5,685 nt of DNA from a virus. Location: IMG/VR virus record IMGVR_UViG_3300045988_000092, positions 1 through 5,685 of that record; one strand, given 5' to 3'. Positions 1 through 5,685 of this stretch are shown piece by piece. Below the pieces are notes generated by a model. That model saw only the letters and a program-made list of their open reading frames with translations, ran no database searches and was not told where the DNA came from. Numbering within the stretch: the stretch's first letter is position 1; each line of letters begins with the position of its first letter. Position numbers and translations under genes: made by a program.

Positions 1-55
1 CTTTTAATTTTCGTTTCATCGTTAAAATTTATTACTTTTCAACTTTTCCACAGTC
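1..55. repeat. Terminal redundancy: bases 1..55 are identical to 5631..5685, marking the circularisation junction of a 5630-nt circular genome
   Basis: Direct read: cttttaattttcgtttcatcgttaaaatttattacttttcaacttttccacagtc occurs verbatim at both window ends. Confidence 0.95.
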
Positions 56-86
56 TCTACTACTACGTCTACAACAAGTTAATATT

Positions 87-138
87 ATATCGCGCGTGCG
101 CGCGTGCGCGCTATCGCGCGTGTGCGTACGTGCGATAT
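87..138. repeat. GC-rich alternating purine/pyrimidine (CG/TG)n island with long-range dyad symmetry, flanked by ATAT ... ATAT. It can fold into a stem of about 24 bp with a TATC loop in ssDNA and is Z-DNA-prone in dsDNA
   Basis: 91-111 and 115-138 are strictly alternating Py/Pu. Pairing 87-111 with 116-138 gives a near-continuous stem with a few G-T wobbles. The island sits within an otherwise AT-rich intergenic region. Confidence 0.6.
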
Positions 139-151
139 AAGCATCTACTTG

Positions 152-169
152 ATAGACTGAATAGACTGA
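152..169 (+). repeat. Perfect tandem 9-mer ATAGACTGA x2. In addition, the 10-mer TACTTGATAG occurs twice (146-155 and 206-215), the second copy forming the loop of the post-VP4 hairpin
   Basis: Direct reading of the intergenic sequence. Confidence 0.7.
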
Positions 170-189
170 TACATGGAGCCTTTAGGCGA

Positions 190-225
190 CAAAAGCCCAG
201 TACCTTACTTGATAGGTACTGGGCT
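190..225 (-). terminator. Hairpin 12 nt downstream of the VP4 stop (AGCCCAGTACC / GGTACTGGGCT, 11-bp perfect stem, 10-nt loop) followed by TTTTG in gene sense. It is a candidate end-of-operon terminator or a ssDNA structural element
   Basis: Inverted repeat 194-204 and 215-225 read directly. The T-tract is short (3-4 T), so terminator function is uncertain. Confidence 0.35.
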
Positions 226-236
226 AGGTGACACTG

Positions 237-1256
237 CTAGAGCGTTCCTTTCTTCTTCATCTGTTTTTTTATCACTCTTTCTTTGGTCTTTAAGTCTTCT
301 GCGTAGTCTGCTTTTTCATATTTCAGTTTGTTCTGTTCAATTATTGCCTTTTGCCGGTTGCACTTTATTCTCCATAGTCTTTCCGGATTTTCCTCTTCCA
401 TTTTTTTTTCGTAATAGCGTGGTATCTGTGCTTGTTTTCCGTTGGTACACTGAATATAACCTCGCTCCCAAATTTCTTTTTTGTGTTTTTGATAGTATTC
501 GTCTCCCAATCCTGGCTTTAGACTCATGCATGCAAAAGGTTTTTGCTGTCCTAGGTCGTAGTATGTGTTGGCTTTCTTTCCGTCTATCTCGTACATTTTT
601 TTGGTGACGTATCCTGCAACATATCTATATGTTTCTGGAACTGCTTGTGCTATCTGTATTTGTCCCATGCCCCATAGGTCTGCTAGCCATTTGCTGGTAT
701 AGTATCCGTTGTGATGGATTTTATACAGGTTTTTAATGTCTGTTGGTTTCCATCCATATAGTATCATGTGGTAATGTGGTCTTGCTGTTTGTTCTCCATA
801 CTCTCCTGCCACGAAATAGCGTAATTTGCCCTTGTAAGCCTTTCTGACACGTTTTAAAAATTTTTGAATGTCTGGATACAGCAACGTTTGGACGCTTTCT
901 GGGCGCTTCTCTCCTGGCTTCCAGACGTATTGTACTTTTCGCATGATTTCGCCTGTTTTGAGTATCATTCCTGGTACGTGTTCGTCATCATAAGTTAGCG
1001 TAATAAACCACACTTCTTCTTTTGCATAGTTTCGTGCTTCTAATTCTATACGTGTTGTCCAGTCCTCCCTTTGTCTTATTCTGCATCCGATGCATTTCCC
1101 GCATGGTATTAGCATTACCTTTGGATTATACATCAAATCTTCATATTTTAATTTTTTGGCCGTTAACTCAGATAAGCGGGCGAGTGAATATACCCGCCCG
1201 CTTATTTCTTTATTTTCTGGGTTGTACAGCCTTATTAATGGCTTGTAACAACTCAT
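237..1256 (-). CDS. VP4: Microviridae replication initiation protein (VP4/Rep, HUH rolling-circle endonuclease), 339 aa
   Basis: N-terminal Cys cluster CGKCIGCR. Motif I FITLTYD, motif II HYHMILYG (HUH), motif III YVAGYVTKK (compare phiX174 protein A YVAKYVNKK). SD AGGTGA about 9 nt upstream. ATG overlaps the VP2 TGA (ATGA). Confidence 0.9.
   Translation of the reverse strand: MSCYKPLIRLYNPENKEISGRVYSLARLSELTAKKLKYEDLMYNPKVMLIPCGKCIGCRIRQREDWTTRIELEARNYAKEEVWFITLTYDDEHVPGMILKTGEIMRKVQYVWKPGEKRPESVQTLLYPDIQKFLKRVRKAYKGKLRYFVAGEYGEQTARPHYHMILYGWKPTDIKNLYKIHHNGYYTSKWLADLWGMGQIQIAQAVPETYRYVAGYVTKKMYEIDGKKANTYYDLGQQKPFACMSLKPGLGDEYYQKHKKEIWERGYIQCTNGKQAQIPRYYEKKMEEENPERLWRIKCNRQKAIIEQNKLKYEKADYAEDLKTKERVIKKQMKKKGTL
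1172..1205. other. Perfect 11-bp GC-rich inverted repeat (ATAAGCGGGCG / CGCCCGCTTAT) with a 12-nt AT-rich loop, inside the 5' end of the Rep (VP4) coding region
   Basis: The arms 1172-1182 and 1195-1205 are exact reverse complements. They encode I-S-G-R and L-A-R-L using GC-rich codons (GGG, CGG, GCC, CGC) that are atypical for this AT-rich genome. The loop in gene sense is GGTATATTCACT. Confidence 0.6.
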
Positions 1257-2125
1257 CTTAAGTAATCACCTGGCCTTCTTTTTTCTCCGTAGGATCCTGT
1301 TTTGTTCTGAGGTGCTTGATAGTTGTTCTTTTGGTCGCCCTTTTTTTGGTCGCCCTTTTTTGGTACGTTTTTGTCAATGGCTTCGCTGGTGTCGCTTCCA
1401 ATTTCGGTTAGTGTTTTCTGCAGTCCGTATGGGGTCATTTGTGTACTGCTGAGCATTTGCTGCCAACTTTGTGCTGCATTGAACCAGTCACTTTTGCTCC
1501 AACTGTTGCTTTGGTATGCGTTTGGTACAAATCCTCCACTTCTACTTACTCCTAGTGCGCTGCTGCTTGCAAGTCCCATACTTGCCCCGCTGATTGTTCC
1601 TGCGCTTCCACCTGGTGTGCTCGCTCCACCATTTGAGAATGCCAGTATTGGATTAAGTCCGGCTTTTTTCATATCTTCTACGGCTCTTTGATATGCCGTG
1701 CTAGACATGTGTTCTTGCCATTCACGGTTTGCTAGGGCTTCTGCGCTGTTGTAGTTCATGGCAGTGCTGTTTTCGATGTGGTTGTATACGCCTTGCATAA
1801 TTGACTGTAATGTATTGTAACCCATCTGCTTTAGCATACTTTGGCTGTTGTACTTGGCTTGCATGGCACTTTCTTGCCCTTGATATGCATATGCCTGTTT
1901 TAGCCATTCATCAACCTGTTGTACGTTGGTGCTTGATTGACTTCCGCTTTCGGAATGTCCACCGCCTTGCTGTGTGCTTCCGCCGCTGCTTTGGCTGCTG
2001 CCTGTTTGACCCCATCCTCCAAGAGCGCCTCCGATGTTTTTTGCTGCTCCTGCTATTGTTCCTACTGTGTTTGCCACGTTTCCGGCGATGTTGAGTGCTG
2101 TTAATAGTCCTGTTAAGCCTCCCAT
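1253..2125 (-). CDS. VP2: Microviridae minor capsid / DNA pilot protein (VP2-like), 290 aa
   Basis: Hydrophobic N-terminus followed by a Gly/Ser/Gln-rich region. Conserved gokushovirus VP2 core ...AYQRAVEDMKKAGLNPILAF... It sits directly downstream of the major capsid gene. Confidence 0.8.
   Translation of the reverse strand: MGGLTGLLTALNIAGNVANTVGTIAGAAKNIGGALGGWGQTGSSQSSGGSTQQGGGHSESGSQSSTNVQQVDEWLKQAYAYQGQESAMQAKYNSQSMLKQMGYNTLQSIMQGVYNHIENSTAMNYNSAEALANREWQEHMSSTAYQRAVEDMKKAGLNPILAFSNGGASTPGGSAGTISGASMGLASSSALGVSRSGGFVPNAYQSNSWSKSDWFNAAQSWQQMLSSTQMTPYGLQKTLTEIGSDTSEAIDKNVPKKGDQKKGDQKNNYQAPQNKTGSYGEKRRPGDYLR
1333..1362 (-). repeat. In-frame 15-nt tandem duplication in the VP2 C-terminus, giving KKGDQ-KKGDQ, with 14 of 15 nt identical
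   Basis: ggtcgccc followed by a T run, twice, with a period of 15 nt. Confidence 0.75.
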
Positions 2126-2126
2126 T

Positions 2127-2155
2127 TAAAAAATAGCCCGGGTTTTTCCCGGGCT
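2127..2155 (-). terminator. Intrinsic terminator or attenuator hairpin between VP1 and VP2: AGCCCGGG-AAAAA-CCCGGGCT followed by ATTTTTTAA in gene sense
   Basis: Perfect 8-bp GC-rich inverted repeat (plus 2135-2142 and 2148-2155) with a 5-nt loop, followed in gene sense by a run of six T. It sits directly after the TAA of the highly expressed capsid gene. Confidence 0.5.
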
Positions 2156-2165
2156 TCCTCCTTTC

Positions 2166-3866
2166 TTACAGTTTATACAGCCCCGGTACGCTGTACAGCG
2201 GCATACAACGTGTGGTCTTGTTGGCTACGCGGATTGCTCCGAAGAACTGCGGTTCGTTTTGTACGATGAGTGTTCTCGCGATTTCGGTTTTACCTTCTGT
2301 CATCCATTCCTGCGAGAGTGTCGGCACAGTTTCGTAGTTGTCTGCATAGTGCCAGAAATCTAACGTCCCTGTTGCATTGCTTCGCATTAAGCCACTTACC
2401 CGGTTTGGCTTCATTCGGTAGTCAGCCCAGGCTTCTTGATAGCCGAATGTTTCTTCATCGGATGATAAACCTGTTAGCATGATTTCCTTTTTCTTTACTG
2501 GCTGTTCGCCTATATTCGCGAACTGAGGCACATAGTAGTCAAGTCTATCTCTTCTACTCCAGAATCGTTCAAGTCCCTGCTGGTAAGTGCGATTGTGTCT
2601 TACGCACATTACACCAATGACGAATCCATGTTCTTCAAACGATTTTGTAAAGGAACTTTCGTTGATTGGCGTTACTGACATTGCGCCTGTTTCACCGATG
2701 GGTGTACTGTTTTGGTCTTGCTGCCCAGAAGTCTGTACGATTTGGTTCATATTGACATGATAGCGTCCGCCTCCCAGGTATTCCGGCACCTGTACTGTTT
2801 TGTCACTAATTGTGACATTCCACAGAGCTTGTACCTGTTCACGGTAACGGCTGCCACCTCGTGCCATCGTTTCATAGTACTGCTGTACCGCGATTGCGTT
2901 TCGTAGTTCGTTAATGGTGGTCGCGGTTACGCTTCCAAGGTCTGCGTACATCCACCCTCCATCGCCTGTGCTTCCCGTTGCGCCAAATGTTCCGCTGAAT
3001 TCCATTTGTGCTTTTTCGCCTGGTTTGTTGGTTTCTTTCAGATAGGTGAGACTTCCGGCCTTGTTGCTTGTCTGTGTTGACCCGACTACCATGGTTATTG
3101 ACGTTTTTGGGTCATTGTATTCTCCGTTTGACTCTCCCAGTCTGATTGGTGCGTTTCCTGTTAACGGTACGGTCACGTTCGGTCCACGCTGAGCATAGGG
3201 AAGGCAGCTTGAGAAGTAGTCGTGGAAGCGGTTTACAGGTAAGCATTGTCCGCCCGAGATTGCGTTCTGTATAACTTGTTCAAGACTTCCTTTTTCAAGA
3301 CTTCCTTTTTCTTCTACATCGTTGTAGTTGATATTTTCATCGTCTGTTCTGAATGTTGCTGCGTTCTCTACGTTTTCATCTCTGAAGAATTCATTCCAGA
3401 TTTTTACGTATGCTCGTATCGGCAGTGCGTTTATTTCGAAAGTTTTTTTGATTTTTGTTGGCACTCCCATGTAGTCTAAAATTGTTTTTTCTGACGGCTT
3501 CGGCTTGCTTTCATTTCCTTCAACTCTGATTTGTGGTACACTGTATGCTTTGGTAGGCATCCACGGTTTATCTTCTACTTCACCCATGAAATATTTGAAA
3601 TTGTCCCATAGGATACGGTTCGGACAGTAGAAATAATAGAAATCAATGAACGCGTCATCCATGACCGGGTATTTTGGCGTTGTCATTCGGATGATTGCGC
3701 TGGTATCTACTTGGAAGGTATCGCCTGGCAGTACTTCATCTACGAAGAATGGGATAAGTTTACCGCTATCGAATGTGGTTAAAATCGTTTGGTCTCTGTT
3801 GAATCGTGTTCGGCTTGCTTTCATTTCTGGAATTTGCAGAAAGTGCCGTTCGTTGTTTCTATTCAT
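2166..3866 (-). CDS. VP1: Microviridae major capsid protein (VP1 / F-like), 566 aa
   Basis: N-terminal region ...FDSGKLIPFFVDEVLPGDTF... is the characteristic gokushovirus VP1 signature. The length is typical of Gokushovirinae. SD AAGGGAG 13 nt upstream. ATG overlaps the VP3 TGA. Confidence 0.93.
   Translation of the reverse strand: MNRNNERHFLQIPEMKASRTRFNRDQTILTTFDSGKLIPFFVDEVLPGDTFQVDTSAIIRMTTPKYPVMDDAFIDFYYFYCPNRILWDNFKYFMGEVEDKPWMPTKAYSVPQIRVEGNESKPKPSEKTILDYMGVPTKIKKTFEINALPIRAYVKIWNEFFRDENVENAATFRTDDENINYNDVEEKGSLEKGSLEQVIQNAISGGQCLPVNRFHDYFSSCLPYAQRGPNVTVPLTGNAPIRLGESNGEYNDPKTSITMVVGSTQTSNKAGSLTYLKETNKPGEKAQMEFSGTFGATGSTGDGGWMYADLGSVTATTINELRNAIAVQQYYETMARGGSRYREQVQALWNVTISDKTVQVPEYLGGGRYHVNMNQIVQTSGQQDQNSTPIGETGAMSVTPINESSFTKSFEEHGFVIGVMCVRHNRTYQQGLERFWSRRDRLDYYVPQFANIGEQPVKKKEIMLTGLSSDEETFGYQEAWADYRMKPNRVSGLMRSNATGTLDFWHYADNYETVPTLSQEWMTEGKTEIARTLIVQNEPQFFGAIRVANKTTRCMPLYSVPGLYKL
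3281..3310 (-). repeat. In-frame 15-nt perfect tandem duplication in VP1, giving EKGSL-EKGSL
   Basis: caagacttccttttt occurs twice back to back. Confidence 0.8.
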
Positions 3867-4261
3867 TCTTCTGTTTTACTCCCTTCTACTGGTTCTTTTT
3901 TCTGCTCTTTGTTCAGTTCTTCCAGTTCTTTGAGCTTCATCGCGTTAGCTTGTGCTGTTGCTACCATCTGATGATATTCGTGGATGTTCTGCGGAAAATT
4001 GGTGATGTCTACCTCTGTGCCTTCCATAGCGCCTTGTGACAGGCTTTTCATAAATTCCGGGTCGAAACTTGCTTTTCTCACAATGTTTTTGATATCGCAT
4101 TCATCTGCGTAGCTTTCAATCTCTGCTTGAATGTCGATACTTTCGGTTTCTTGCAGGTATTCTTTGCCTTCTTTGTCTTTTGCCCAGACGTATTGTTTTC
4201 GCTCTGTTTCTCCTGGATTTGAAAAGAAGGGCTCGCGCCCTTCTTCGTATCTCTTATTCAT
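3863..4261 (-). CDS. VP3: Putative internal scaffolding protein (VP3-like), acidic, 132 aa
   Basis: Strongly acidic and Glu-rich. Its size and position are consistent with gokushovirus VP3; it lies immediately upstream of VP1 and is translationally coupled to it (ATGA). SD GGGAGGG 8 nt upstream. The functional call rests on composition and synteny, not on a recognised motif. Confidence 0.6.
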   Translation of the reverse strand: MNKRYEEGREPFFSNPGETERKQYVWAKDKEGKEYLQETESIDIQAEIESYADECDIKNIVRKASFDPEFMKSLSQGAMEGTEVDITNFPQNIHEYHQMVATAQANAMKLKELEELNKEQKKEPVEGSKTEE

Positions 4262-4493
4262 TCGGCTTTCCCTCCCATACTTTTTCAGTATCGTTTGTGA
4301 ACGTGCCTACTTCGTCTTCAAAAACTGCCAGTTTAAAGCCGGTATAGTCCTGGGGGCTCTGGCCGATGAAGGTCGTTTTGTCCTTTTCCATCACGTTGCA
4401 CATGCGTGCGAACGTTGCATTGTTTTTGCTTTCTCCTACCCATGTATAGCATTTTGCTACGTTGTCCCAAATTCCATAATAGTTGTGTTTCAT
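4254..4493 (-). CDS. Hypothetical protein, 79 aa
   Basis: SD GAGGAG about 11 nt upstream of the ATG. Its stop overlaps the VP3 start by 8 nt. It matches no family I recognise. It could be a VP5-like accessory protein, but that is speculation. Confidence 0.55.
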   Translation of the reverse strand: MKHNYYGIWDNVAKCYTWVGESKNNATFARMCNVMEKDKTTFIGQSPQDYTGFKLAVFEDEVGTFTNDTEKVWEGKPNE

Positions 4494-4511
4494 TGTTTTC
4501 TTTCTCCTCTC

Positions 4512-4634
4512 TTACAGTCGGATGCCGCCCCGCATTGGCTTTTGGCTCAAGTTGATTGCTTTGGTTTTTCGTGCTGTTACGTTAAACATACGGCGGTCCT
4601 TTGCGCCGCTCATCTTCTTACGATGTTGTGCCAT
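4512..4634 (-). CDS. Small basic DNA-binding protein (J / VP8-like), 40 aa: MAQHRKKMSGAKDRRMFNVTARKTKAINLSQKPMRGGIRL. It is absent from the supplied ORF track
   Basis: Hand translation of the minus strand. SD GAAGGGAG 8 nt upstream of the ATG at 4634, and a TAA stop at 4512-4514. It is very Arg/Lys-rich and ends in a GG-basic tail, as in the SpV4 and Chlamydia-phage ORF8 proteins and phiX174 J. It fills an otherwise non-coding gap in a tightly packed genome. Confidence 0.6.
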   Translation of the reverse strand: MAQHRKKMSGAKDRRMFNVTARKTKAINLSQKPMRGGIRL

Positions 4635-4845
4635 CGTTGTACTCCCTTCTGATTAGTTCTAGCTCAATATCATTTGCAAATTTTTTTGTTCGCCAGATTT
4701 CCTCCAGCATAATTTTTGCATCTTCTATGTTGTTTAGCTTTCGTAGCATTTTATATCCAGCGTTGATTTCTTTGTATTTTTTTTCAAGGAGGCGTTTTAG
4801 TGATTCTTTGGGCTGGTCTCTTATGCTCCATGTTTTGTGCATCAT
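4618..4845 (-). CDS. Hypothetical protein, 75 aa, Lys/Glu-rich and predicted helical
   Basis: SD AAGGAG 7 nt upstream of the ATGATG start. No recognisable domain. Confidence 0.55.
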   Translation of the reverse strand: MMHKTWSIRDQPKESLKRLLEKKYKEINAGYKMLRKLNNIEDAKIMLEEIWRTKKFANDIELELIRREYNDGTTS

Positions 4846-4848
4846 GGT

Positions 4849-4971
4849 TTACTCCTTTTCTTTTTCGTTGACACTATCGTGCAGCGCATGATAGATTTTG
4901 TCAAGCTTTTCAAGAATTTCCATCATGAGACGGATTGCCTGTTTGACGTCCTTAATGGAAATAAGCGCCAT
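4849..4971 (-). CDS. Possible small ORF, 40 aa: MALISIKDVKQAIRLMMEILEKLDKIYHALHDSVNEKEKE. It is absent from the supplied ORF track
   Basis: Hand translation. SD AAAGGGGG 7 nt upstream of the ATG at 4971. Its TAA stop overlaps the SD of the next gene. It occupies the only gap between the peptidase gene and the 75-aa gene. Confidence 0.4.
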   Translation of the reverse strand: MALISIKDVKQAIRLMMEILEKLDKIYHALHDSVNEKEKE

Positions 4972-4972
4972 G

Positions 4973-5362
4973 TTATACCCCCTTTCTGTATGTTTTGGTA
5001 CGCGTGTCAATGTGTACCCATGTGTCGTACACGATGATGCCGCAGCCAGACGGAATGATTTTATTCAGTTTGTTGGCAATTTCTTTTGCGGTCATGCCTT
5101 CAATTCGGATGTCTGCTGCCATTCCTCGCATGTGATATGAGTACTTTGCACCGCCTACCGCTTTATTCCTTGTCGGTGTCCGGTATCCGCTGTTTATGTA
5201 CACTGGTTTTCCGACTTGGTTTCTGAGGATATCCAGAATAGACACCAAATAGCTGTCGATGAATACGACTTGTGAACCATCTTTGCACGCAAATTCTCGC
5301 ACTTTAAAGTGCTGACCTACTTTTTCGTTTGCGTCTGTGTCCATGATATAGCATTTAATCAT
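4973..5362 (-). CDS. Peptidase M15-family peptidoglycan hydrolase (VanY / L-alanoyl-D-glutamate-peptidase-like), 129 aa; candidate lysis enzyme
   Basis: Zn-binding and catalytic signature SGYRTPTRN...GGAKYSYHMRGMAADI...WVHIDTR (SxHxxGxAxD plus a distal His-x-Asp), preceded by F-K-V-R-E-F-A-C-K-D-G as in M15_3 / T5-endolysin-type domains. SD AAGAGG 9 nt upstream. No signal peptide is visible. Confidence 0.85.
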   Translation of the reverse strand: MIKCYIMDTDANEKVGQHFKVREFACKDGSQVVFIDSYLVSILDILRNQVGKPVYINSGYRTPTRNKAVGGAKYSYHMRGMAADIRIEGMTAKEIANKLNKIIPSGCGIIVYDTWVHIDTRTKTYRKGV

Positions 5363-5387
5363 TGTGGTTTACCTCTTTTCATTTTGG

Positions 5388-5416
5388 ATTTTACCATTTT
5401 TTTTATCGCTTGTCAA
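5388..5416 (-). promoter_or_regulatory. Sigma70-type promoter for the whole minus-strand gene cluster: -35 TTGACA, 17-nt spacer, -10 TAAAAT
   Basis: Minus-strand reading is TTGACA-agcgataaaaaaaatgg-TAAAAT. The -35 is plus 5411-5416 tgtcaa and the -10 is plus 5388-5393 atttta. It lies about 25 nt upstream of the peptidase SD and ATG. Confidence 0.5.
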
Positions 5417-5508
5417 TTGTTTTTTGTTTCGAATGGCGCTTTAGCGCCTTGCCGTATGGAGCGCAGCGGAATGCGGCTTAATCCATTCATTATTAGCGCT
5501 GTGCGCGT

Positions 5509-5621
5509 TTTCAACACTTTCAACACTTTCAACAGGTTTTCCACAAAATGTTGCACAATTGATTTCGTCATTTTGACGAACTTTCAACATTTCAACATTT
5601 TTTCCACAAAGTTTTCAACAG
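5509..5621 (+). repeat. Iteron array of about seven TTTCAAC(A) repeats, including three perfect tandem 9-mers at 5509-5535. Interleaved with these are TTTTCCACA motifs at 5537-5545 and 5600-5608, with a third at 44-52 across the junction; they match the relaxed DnaA-box consensus TTWTNCACA
   Basis: Direct reading gives tttcaacac, tttcaacac, tttcaacag, then ttttccaca, then tttcaacat, ttcaacat, ttttccaca, tttcaacag; ttttcaac and ttttccaca follow in 37-52. Confidence 0.7.
5564..5580. promoter_or_regulatory. Perfect 17-bp palindrome TTCGTCA-TTT-TGACGAA embedded in the iteron array; candidate dimeric protein-binding site
   Basis: The arms 5564-5570 and 5574-5580 are exact reverse complements. Confidence 0.4.
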
Positions 5622-5630
5622 TGTATTTCT

Positions 5631-5685
5631 CTTTTAATTTTCGTTTCATCGTTAAAATTTATTACTTTTCAACTTTTCCACAGTC
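5631..5685. repeat. Second copy of the 55-nt terminal redundancy (equals 1..55)
   Basis: Exact identity with 1..55; an assembly or linearisation artefact of a circular molecule. Confidence 0.95.

Follow-up and report, generated by a model that had tools for sequence, protein, structure and literature searches.

A short minus-strand gene of a gut gokushovirus genome, assigned by sequence comparison to the VP8 family

The stretch of viral DNA analysed here (the window, 5,685 nt; positions 1 to 5,685 of IMG/VR record IMGVR_UViG_3300045988_000092) carries on its minus strand, at positions 4512..4634, a 40-codon open reading frame that genuinely codes for protein and evolves under purifying selection. 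By sequence comparison its product is a member of the gokushovirus VP8 family (phrog_10695), and we regard it as highly probable that this is the functional VP8 gene of a gut gokushovirus. VP8 is the small basic DNA-binding protein packed in the gokushovirus capsid with the single-stranded genome. An initial annotation, made from the DNA letters only, had proposed at this site the gene of an arginine- and lysine-rich DNA-packaging protein resembling VP8 and phiX174 J. The finding was correct but already known, since the gene is a real, ordinary representative of a well-known family.

Genome context and position of the gene

Bases 1-55 of the window repeat exactly at 5631-5685, hence the window represents a complete, circularly closed gokushovirus genome of ~5630 nt; the 55-nt terminal direct repeat itself most probably reflects a k-mer overlap left by the assembler. 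The closest GenBank records come from gokushoviruses of pig, human and monkey gut, with 73-79% nucleotide identity. Every gene that is recognisable with Pfam or PHROG lies on the minus strand, and the array reads, in the order of that strand, peptidase-orf53-orf75-VP8-VP5-VP3-VP1-VP2-VP4.

Immediately downstream of VP8 lies VP5 (4254..4493, minus; 79 aa), which matches Phage_ORF5 (PF20577) with a Pfam E-value of 5.3e-8 and phrog_1670 with an E-value of 1.7e-16. The major capsid protein VP1 (2166..3866, minus), putative binding partner of VP8, matches PF02305 (Phage_F, E 1.3e-136) as well as the solved gokushovirus capsids in the PDB (8des_A, E 4.5e-101; 9cgm_A, E 6.9e-90). VP3, VP2 and VP4, all of them on the minus strand, correspond to Chlamy_scaf, to the pilot protein PHROGs and to the replication initiator, respectively. 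On the other side, the 75-aa ORF (orf75; 4618..4845, minus) belongs to no Pfam or PHROG family, yields a tblastn match in 49 of 56 related loci (defined below) with a median identity of 63%, and contains the VP8 Shine-Dalgarno (SD) sequence.

The array starts with a Peptidase_M15_3 endolysin-like gene (4973..5362, minus; Pfam E 6e-23; phrog_894), a type of accessory lysis gene found in some gut microviruses and movable between families by recombination (PMC9239249). Its 3' end is overlapped by 38 nt by a 53-aa ORF (4849-5010, minus) that has a TTG start and no SD; this ORF has a tblastn match in 48 of the 56 loci, being covered by more than 80% in just 31, and its status as a coding gene is uncertain. 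At 5388-5416 (minus), ~25 nt 5' of the peptidase gene, we observed a strong sigma-70-like site (TTGACA-17 nt-TAAAAT, extended TG, 11/12 matches), a candidate promoter of the whole minus-strand array in a region where the count of such sites is not above that of shuffled sequences. Scanning 4200..5685 for promoters and terminators gave counts not above shuffles and no VP8-specific element.

Concerning VP8 itself, the position and translation given in the initial annotation, a 40-aa minus-strand ORF between the 75-aa and 79-aa genes, were reproduced exactly. The reading frame, ATG GCA CAA CAT ... CGA CTG TAA, runs from 4634 to 4512 (40 codons plus the TAA stop) and translates into MAQHRKKMSGAKDRRMFNVTARKTKAINLSQKPMRGGIRL, a protein of 40 aa with 12 K+R, one His and one Asp and thus a net charge of about +11. 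The codons for PMRGGIRL and the stop (4512..4538, minus) encode the C-terminal segment that would bind the VP1 pocket. The start of VP8 overlaps the 75-aa ORF by 17 nt, an arrangement that recurs in ~51 loci, and 18 nt separate its end from the start of VP5. The feature is called from the ORF translation, the phrog_10695 and PDB 8des_E matches, conservation and dN/dS, which are described in the following sections.

Conservation and selection across relatives

Relatives were fetched from IMG/VR with the neighbouring VP5 protein alone, which avoids selection on the VP8 ORF. This yielded 56 loci, four of which were excluded for having too little sequence upstream of VP5. An intact ORF of 39-40 codons, with an ATG start and an RGGIR(L/M)-stop end located 13-28 nt before VP5, is present in 52/52 usable loci; the frameshifts and stops that the initial annotation had named as evidence against the gene were looked for, and all 52 loci proved intact.

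Codon statistics were obtained from 51 distinct nucleotide sequences, that of the window among them. Columns have a mean entropy of 0.20 at the first, 0.24 at the second and 0.86 at the third codon position, and the pooled Nei-Gojobori dN/dS of VP8 is 0.11, with marked regional differences: the C-terminal codons 18-40 (23 codons) show a value of 0.037, and codons 2-7 a value of 0.27. The proportion of synonymous differences (pS) is ~0.49, which means that the relatives are well diverged and that synonymous sites are free to vary. The other two sense frames contain stops in 51/51 and 34/51 sequences and show pN/pS above 2. VP8 is the best conserved small gene of the clade (median identity 92%), ahead of VP5 (85%), the peptidase (69%) and orf75 (63%). 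The Rfam scan of the whole window returned no RNA family, hence an RNA element does not explain the conservation of VP8.

Family membership

The window protein matches phrog_10695 with an E-value of 9.2e-12, over positions 2-39 of the 39 in the profile. The same PHROG is matched by Chlamydia phage Chp2 ORF8 (5.8e-19), phiEC6098 VP8 (1.6e-10), the phiMH2K protein (8e-8) and a protein of bajarodmic virus 406 that GenBank names 'DNA binding protein' (E 1.6e-11). In the PDB the only match is 8DES chain E, the 39-aa 'Putative DNA binding protein' of phiEC6098, which aligns end to end with an E-value of 0.008 for the single sequence and 3.5e-4 with the profile of alignment A2. It should be noted that A2 was built only from the window VP8 and 20 metagenomic relatives, so that the profile search of the PDB is not circular. 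The peptide is short and compositionally biased and its pairwise identity to characterised VP8s is modest, a setting in which these PDB E-values, of the order of 1e-2 to 1e-4, have to be read.

A second alignment, A1, combines the window VP8 with five characterised or annotated VP8s (Chp2, phiMH2K, EC6098, SpV4 and bajarodmic). Residues R5, R35, G36, G37 and R39 are invariant in it, and the final residue is always Leu or Phe; comparison with the small basic proteins of gokushoviruses, proposed earlier as a check, thus came out in favour of the assignment. In the clade alignment A2 (21 sequences) RGGIRL is invariant and the N-terminal half retains 7-9 basic residues throughout. The window protein also has the general attributes of the family, namely a length in the range of ~38-44 aa, a highly basic composition, a C-terminal R-G-G-x-R-(L/F)-stop, and a gokushovirus genome in which its gene lies on the same strand as VP1, VP2, VP3, VP4 and VP5. 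The Pfam scan of the 40-aa protein, with E up to 1, found no family; given that a Pfam model exists only for Bullavirinae J, this empty scan is uninformative regarding the gokushovirus family.

A peculiarity of the clade is Asp13 (4596-4598, minus), which is invariant in 21/21 A2 sequences amid an otherwise basic N-terminal half, and is absent from the VP8 of EC6098, Chp2, phiMH2K and SpV4.

Comparison with known VP8 and J proteins

The likeness to VP8 that the initial annotation had suggested is borne out by the phrog_10695 match and by the full-length match to 8DES chain E, and its mention of Chlamydia phage ORF8 by the presence of Chp2 ORF8 in the same PHROG. The VP8 of phiEC6098 (Enterogokushovirus; 39 aa) aligns end to end, MARSRRRMSKRSSRRSF...SMRGGIRL against MAQHRKKMSGAKDRRMF...PMRGGIRL in the window, with 49% identity in A1, and shares M1, A2, R5, M8, F17 and the MRGGIRL C-terminus. 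The two proteins differ in charge, as the phiEC6098 protein has 17 K+R and no acidic residue, whereas that of the window has 12 K+R and the invariant Asp13. They also differ in gene position, which is between VP2 and VP4 in phiEC6098 (PMC7062461) and directly upstream of VP5 in the window, and the genomes measure ~4.5 kb and ~5.6 kb, respectively.

Chp2 ORF8 (44 aa; MRLKMARRRYRLPRRRSRRLFSRTALRMHPRNRLRRIMRGGIRF) ends in MRGGIRF, is 38% identical to the window VP8, is much richer in arginine (19 K+R) and is encoded between VP3 and ORF4. The Bdellovibrio phage phiMH2K protein (38 aa; MKRKPMSRKASQKTFKKNTGVQRMNHLNPRAMRGGIRL), recorded as 'putative DNA binding protein; similar to phiX174 J', is likewise small and highly basic and ends in MRGGIRL; it shows 34% identity, and its gene is located between VP5 and the VP4 homologue. 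XHH66864.1 of bajarodmic virus 406 (PQ006521.1; 38 aa) is 61% identical, has the block TAxKTKAINxSxKPMRGGIRL in common with the window protein and adjoins a VP5-like 'nonstructural protein' on its upstream side, as the window VP8 does. Its N-terminus differs (MKRKHLKPKKDKSTF), and this record carries a functional name, unlike the close relatives of the window. Gene-order shuffling is already documented in these families (PMC9239249), and with the differences in gene order and charge, Asp13 and the unusually constrained residues 17-40, the window VP8 still falls inside the family.

The Spiroplasma phage SpV4 VP8 (38 aa, translated with code 4; ...RRKVKNTKRHQWRLTHSARSIKRANIMPSNPRGGRRF) is more distant, with 26% identity in A1. 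Its C-terminal half is colinear with that of the window protein, ...ARSIKRANIMPSNPRGGRRF versus ...ARKTKAINLSQKPMRGGIRL, both having an RGG-x-R-hydrophobic end, and hhalign of SpV4 VP8 against the clade aligns 27 colinear C-terminal columns with an E-value of 5.6e-4 for this single comparison and a probability of 29.8%. SpV4 VP8 does not match phrog_10695, and the PDB search with the A2 profile returned no SpV4 VP8 chain. The SpV4 likeness that had been claimed is hence retained as a weak link, suggested by the hhalign match and the shared motif.

As regards phiX174 J, the claimed likeness is one of size, composition and, according to the literature on VP8 (PMC11281519, PMC11980548), function; it does not extend to detectable homology. 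J (38 aa; MSKGKKRSGARPGRPQPLRGTKGKRKGARLWYVGGQQF; PF04726 Microvir_J, phrog_2354 'DNA condensation') is of the same size, also has 12 K+R, ends in a hydrophobic residue with a GG close by (...WYVGGQQF) and is credited with the same role. The window protein gave no PF04726 match with E up to 1; phiX174 J, as positive control, scored 60.9 bits. Alignment of A2 against J by hhalign gave a probability of 0.4%, and J is placed in a different PHROG. On these grounds homology to J was dropped as a testable claim in favour of analogy, membership in the J family being unsupported. To judge from sequence, the window VP8 is a functional analogue of phiX174 J and not a detectable homologue.

Proposed role in the virion

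The packaging role of these proteins has been genetically demonstrated mainly for phiX174 J. VP8 has been described as an Arg/Lys-rich analogue of J, important for DNA packaging, and in the 2.5-Å map of SpV4 its residues 9-38 are seen along the inner surface of the capsid; residues 14-20 and 33-38 touch VP1, and close to the two-fold axis a hydrophobic pocket of VP1 encloses the buried C-terminal Phe (PMC11281519). The N-terminal 14 residues of SpV4 VP8 are ordered only in DNA-filled particles, which argues that they contact DNA, while the protein is also found in empty capsids, where it lines the VP1 interior and extends a beta-sheet (PMC11281519). According to the same paper, only the last 10 residues of phiEC6098 VP8 (PDB 8DES) are ordered, its last seven residues superpose with those of SpV4, and VP8 and J place their last four residues in the same pocket in all solved microviruses (PMC11281519). 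VP8/J is also reported to bind ssDNA, to mitigate its negative charge and to replace the internal scaffold at ssDNA loading (PMC11980548), and VP8 to be a conserved protein linking the gokushoviral subfamilies (PMC9239249).

In our preferred reading, the VP8 of the window virus is translated from its own SD and ATG within the single-strand gene array. Going by the literature on homologues, the 4.6-kDa protein most likely enters the procapsid with the new circular ssDNA, displacing the internal scaffold VP3. It would then stay in the virion, probably with one copy per VP1, that is, 60 per T=1 capsid. Its ...PMRGGIRL C-terminus would occupy a mostly hydrophobic pocket of the inner VP1 surface, and the N-terminal half, rich in lysine and arginine, would be in contact with the genome and offset some of the genome's charge. 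We infer this combination of C-terminal anchoring and N-terminal DNA contact from the VP1 homology and from an MRGGIRL end identical to that of EC6098. Quantitatively, 60 copies at about +11 would supply ~660 positive charges against ~5630 phosphates, that is, neutralise ~12%, which is in the same range as for phiX174 J (12 K+R, 5386-nt genome). Virion location, C-terminal anchor, packaging and scaffold replacement are thus roles reported for homologues that the window protein may be expected to share; copy number, charge neutralisation and contact with the VP1 pocket are our estimates for the window virus.

The strong conservation of residues 17-40 (dN/dS 0.037) agrees with the structure of SpV4, whose VP8 lines VP1 with residues 14-38, and far exceeds what a simple polycation needs. 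This fact, the invariance of D13 and the presence of SpV4 VP8 in empty capsids, lining the VP1 interior and extending a beta-sheet (PMC11281519), would be compatible with a true VP8 family member whose main job is not genome condensation, serving instead as an internal capsid 'staple' or in the control of VP5/VP3 expression. We consider such a main job unlikely, because it would add to the DNA-binding role and not replace it: the 7-9 basic N-terminal residues are kept clade-wide, and the ordering of the N-terminal 14 residues in full SpV4 capsids only points to DNA contact (PMC11281519).

With DNA binding retained as the preferred role, a tentative extension, in our estimation rather unlikely, is that the near-invariant 24-residue C-terminal block of VP8 (FNVTARKTKxINLSQKPMRGGIRL) together with Asp13 could form an ordered, sequence-specific capsid lining, SpV4-like and phiEC6098-unlike, and that the VP5-adjacent position and a shared SD octamer could balance VP8 and VP1 production. 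If the lining were true, this clade would be suited to asking how the functions of VP8 are shared between capsid and DNA. The octamer in question, GAAGGGAG, precedes both VP1 (3867-3888, minus; 12-nt spacing) and VP8 (4635-4656, minus; 7-nt spacing), maybe by coincidence. Homologous structures indicate that VP1 and VP8 are required in equal numbers.

Translation start and gene length

The strong and well-spaced SD described in the initial annotation was recovered as GAAGGGAG at 4649..4642 (minus), 7 nt 5' of the VP8 ATG, where it falls within the 3' end of orf75. An identical octamer lies upstream of VP8 in 33/51 distinct relatives, and the remainder show purine-rich variants; as the site is inside the orf75 coding sequence, this conservation is neither independent evidence nor attributable to VP8 translation alone. 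Directly upstream of the SD codons, 7 codons 5' of the ATG, there is an in-frame TAA, which makes a longer 5' product impossible in the window.

A real gene of different length, beginning either at Met8 (ATG 4613, 33 aa) or at an upstream in-frame start (63-98 aa), is very unlikely in our view. Observations that would suit another start are the retention of Met8 in almost every relative as well as in EC6098 VP8, the weaker constraint on codons 2-7 (dN/dS 0.27) and, among relatives, database entries of 63-67 aa and a 98-aa GenBank 'DNA binding protein' CDS. However, the in-frame TAA bars extension in the window, and the codon-1 ATG is present in 52/52 loci with an SD 6-8 nt upstream, while no SD-like sequence precedes Met8 (context cgtaagaagATG); the VP8s of EC6098, Chp2 and phiMH2K (38-44 aa) align from the same N-terminus, the dN/dS of codons 2-7 is confounded by the orf75 overlap, and the longer calls are confined to relatives with an open upstream frame (L040, L052). 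We therefore keep the 40-codon gene. In the 63-98-aa calls (L040, L052; P0001, P0016; PQ007339.1, L003 1027-1323) the conserved ATG and SD are internal, and these VP8 calls in relatives are probably over-extended.

Chance and antisense reading frames

Short ORFs are abundant, with 67 of at least 30 aa in the six frames of the 5.7-kb window, so the length of a 40-aa ORF carries no weight by itself; what sets VP8 apart from chance is its conservation (52/52 intact, dN/dS 0.11) together with its homology. That the ORF arose by chance in a short non-coding stretch between two genes and yields no protein, as the abundance of such ORFs and the absent Pfam match might suggest, can be practically dismissed in view of the same ATG and stop position in all 52 independently chosen relatives, the low dN/dS with a fourfold excess of third-position variability, the matches to phrog_10695 (E 9e-12), to a virion protein in the PDB and, by tblastn, in 303 phage records, and a pS of ~0.49, which excludes near-identical copies as the cause of conservation.

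We give equally little credence to a true gene on the plus strand that would leave the minus frame open as a by-product. Two plus-strand ORFs do exist, one of 57 aa (4483..4656), which shares its wobble positions with VP8, and one of 173 aa (4131..4652), antisense to VP5 and VP8, and two antisense frames are stop-free across the VP8 span in 46/51 and 39/51 sequences. Yet those frames are broken in 5/51 and 12/51 (the frame of the 173-aa ORF being interrupted inside the VP8 span in 5/51 relatives) and the third antisense frame in 51/51, whereas that of VP8 never is. The plus-strand products would be hydrophobic and of low complexity, as expected antisense to an A-rich basic gene; all recognisable genes of the window are on the minus strand, in line with the single gene orientation reported for microviruses (PMC9239249), and the homology fits the minus-strand product only. 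Both ORFs were accordingly set aside as antisense by-products on account of the broken frames, the hydrophobic product and the one-strand gene array.

Annotation in public records

VP8/J is a recognised microvirus core gene for which two gokushovirus structures exist, and the biological importance of one further member is small. Kirchberger et al. treat VP8 as a conserved gokushovirus gene, annotated by jackhmmer (PMC9239249). The relevance of the locus lies in how it is recorded. A tblastn search with the VP8 ORF matched 303 phage records; among the best 40 of these, 21 leave the site unannotated and 3 name a 'DNA binding protein' there, in agreement with the earlier statement that such genes are missed by annotation. 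KX513868 has neither VP8 nor VP5 annotated, and the 'hypothetical protein' that MG945383 records at this place is in fact the homologue of the upstream orf75. Dulem virus 184 lists a CDS of 38 aa as 'hypothetical protein', and PQ007339 has the 98-aa, N-terminally extended 'DNA binding protein' call. The description of the gene as hidden is overstated, as the exact 40-aa sequence has already been predicted in public collections (three contigs, Logan and ENA), the close cluster members being labelled 'hypothetical protein'.

Pipelines that apply a minimum ORF length or transfer PHROG labels drop VP8 or misplace its name, and the resulting gap distorts core-gene counts and gene-order comparisons in gut Microviridae. 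A cheap fix would be a 40-position HMM built from A2, combined with the RGGIR[LF]-stop signature.

Two observations on public labels and clusters may be added. The PHROG labels are misleading, since the VP5 family phrog_1670 is named 'DNA binding protein' and the true VP8 family phrog_10695 'unknown function'. The 90%-identity cluster that contains the exact VP8 (P0102-P0116) has as its representative the 79-aa VP5 homologue P0103 and mixes VP5 with VP8; it looks like a clustering artefact, and its '97 members' are not a count of VP8.
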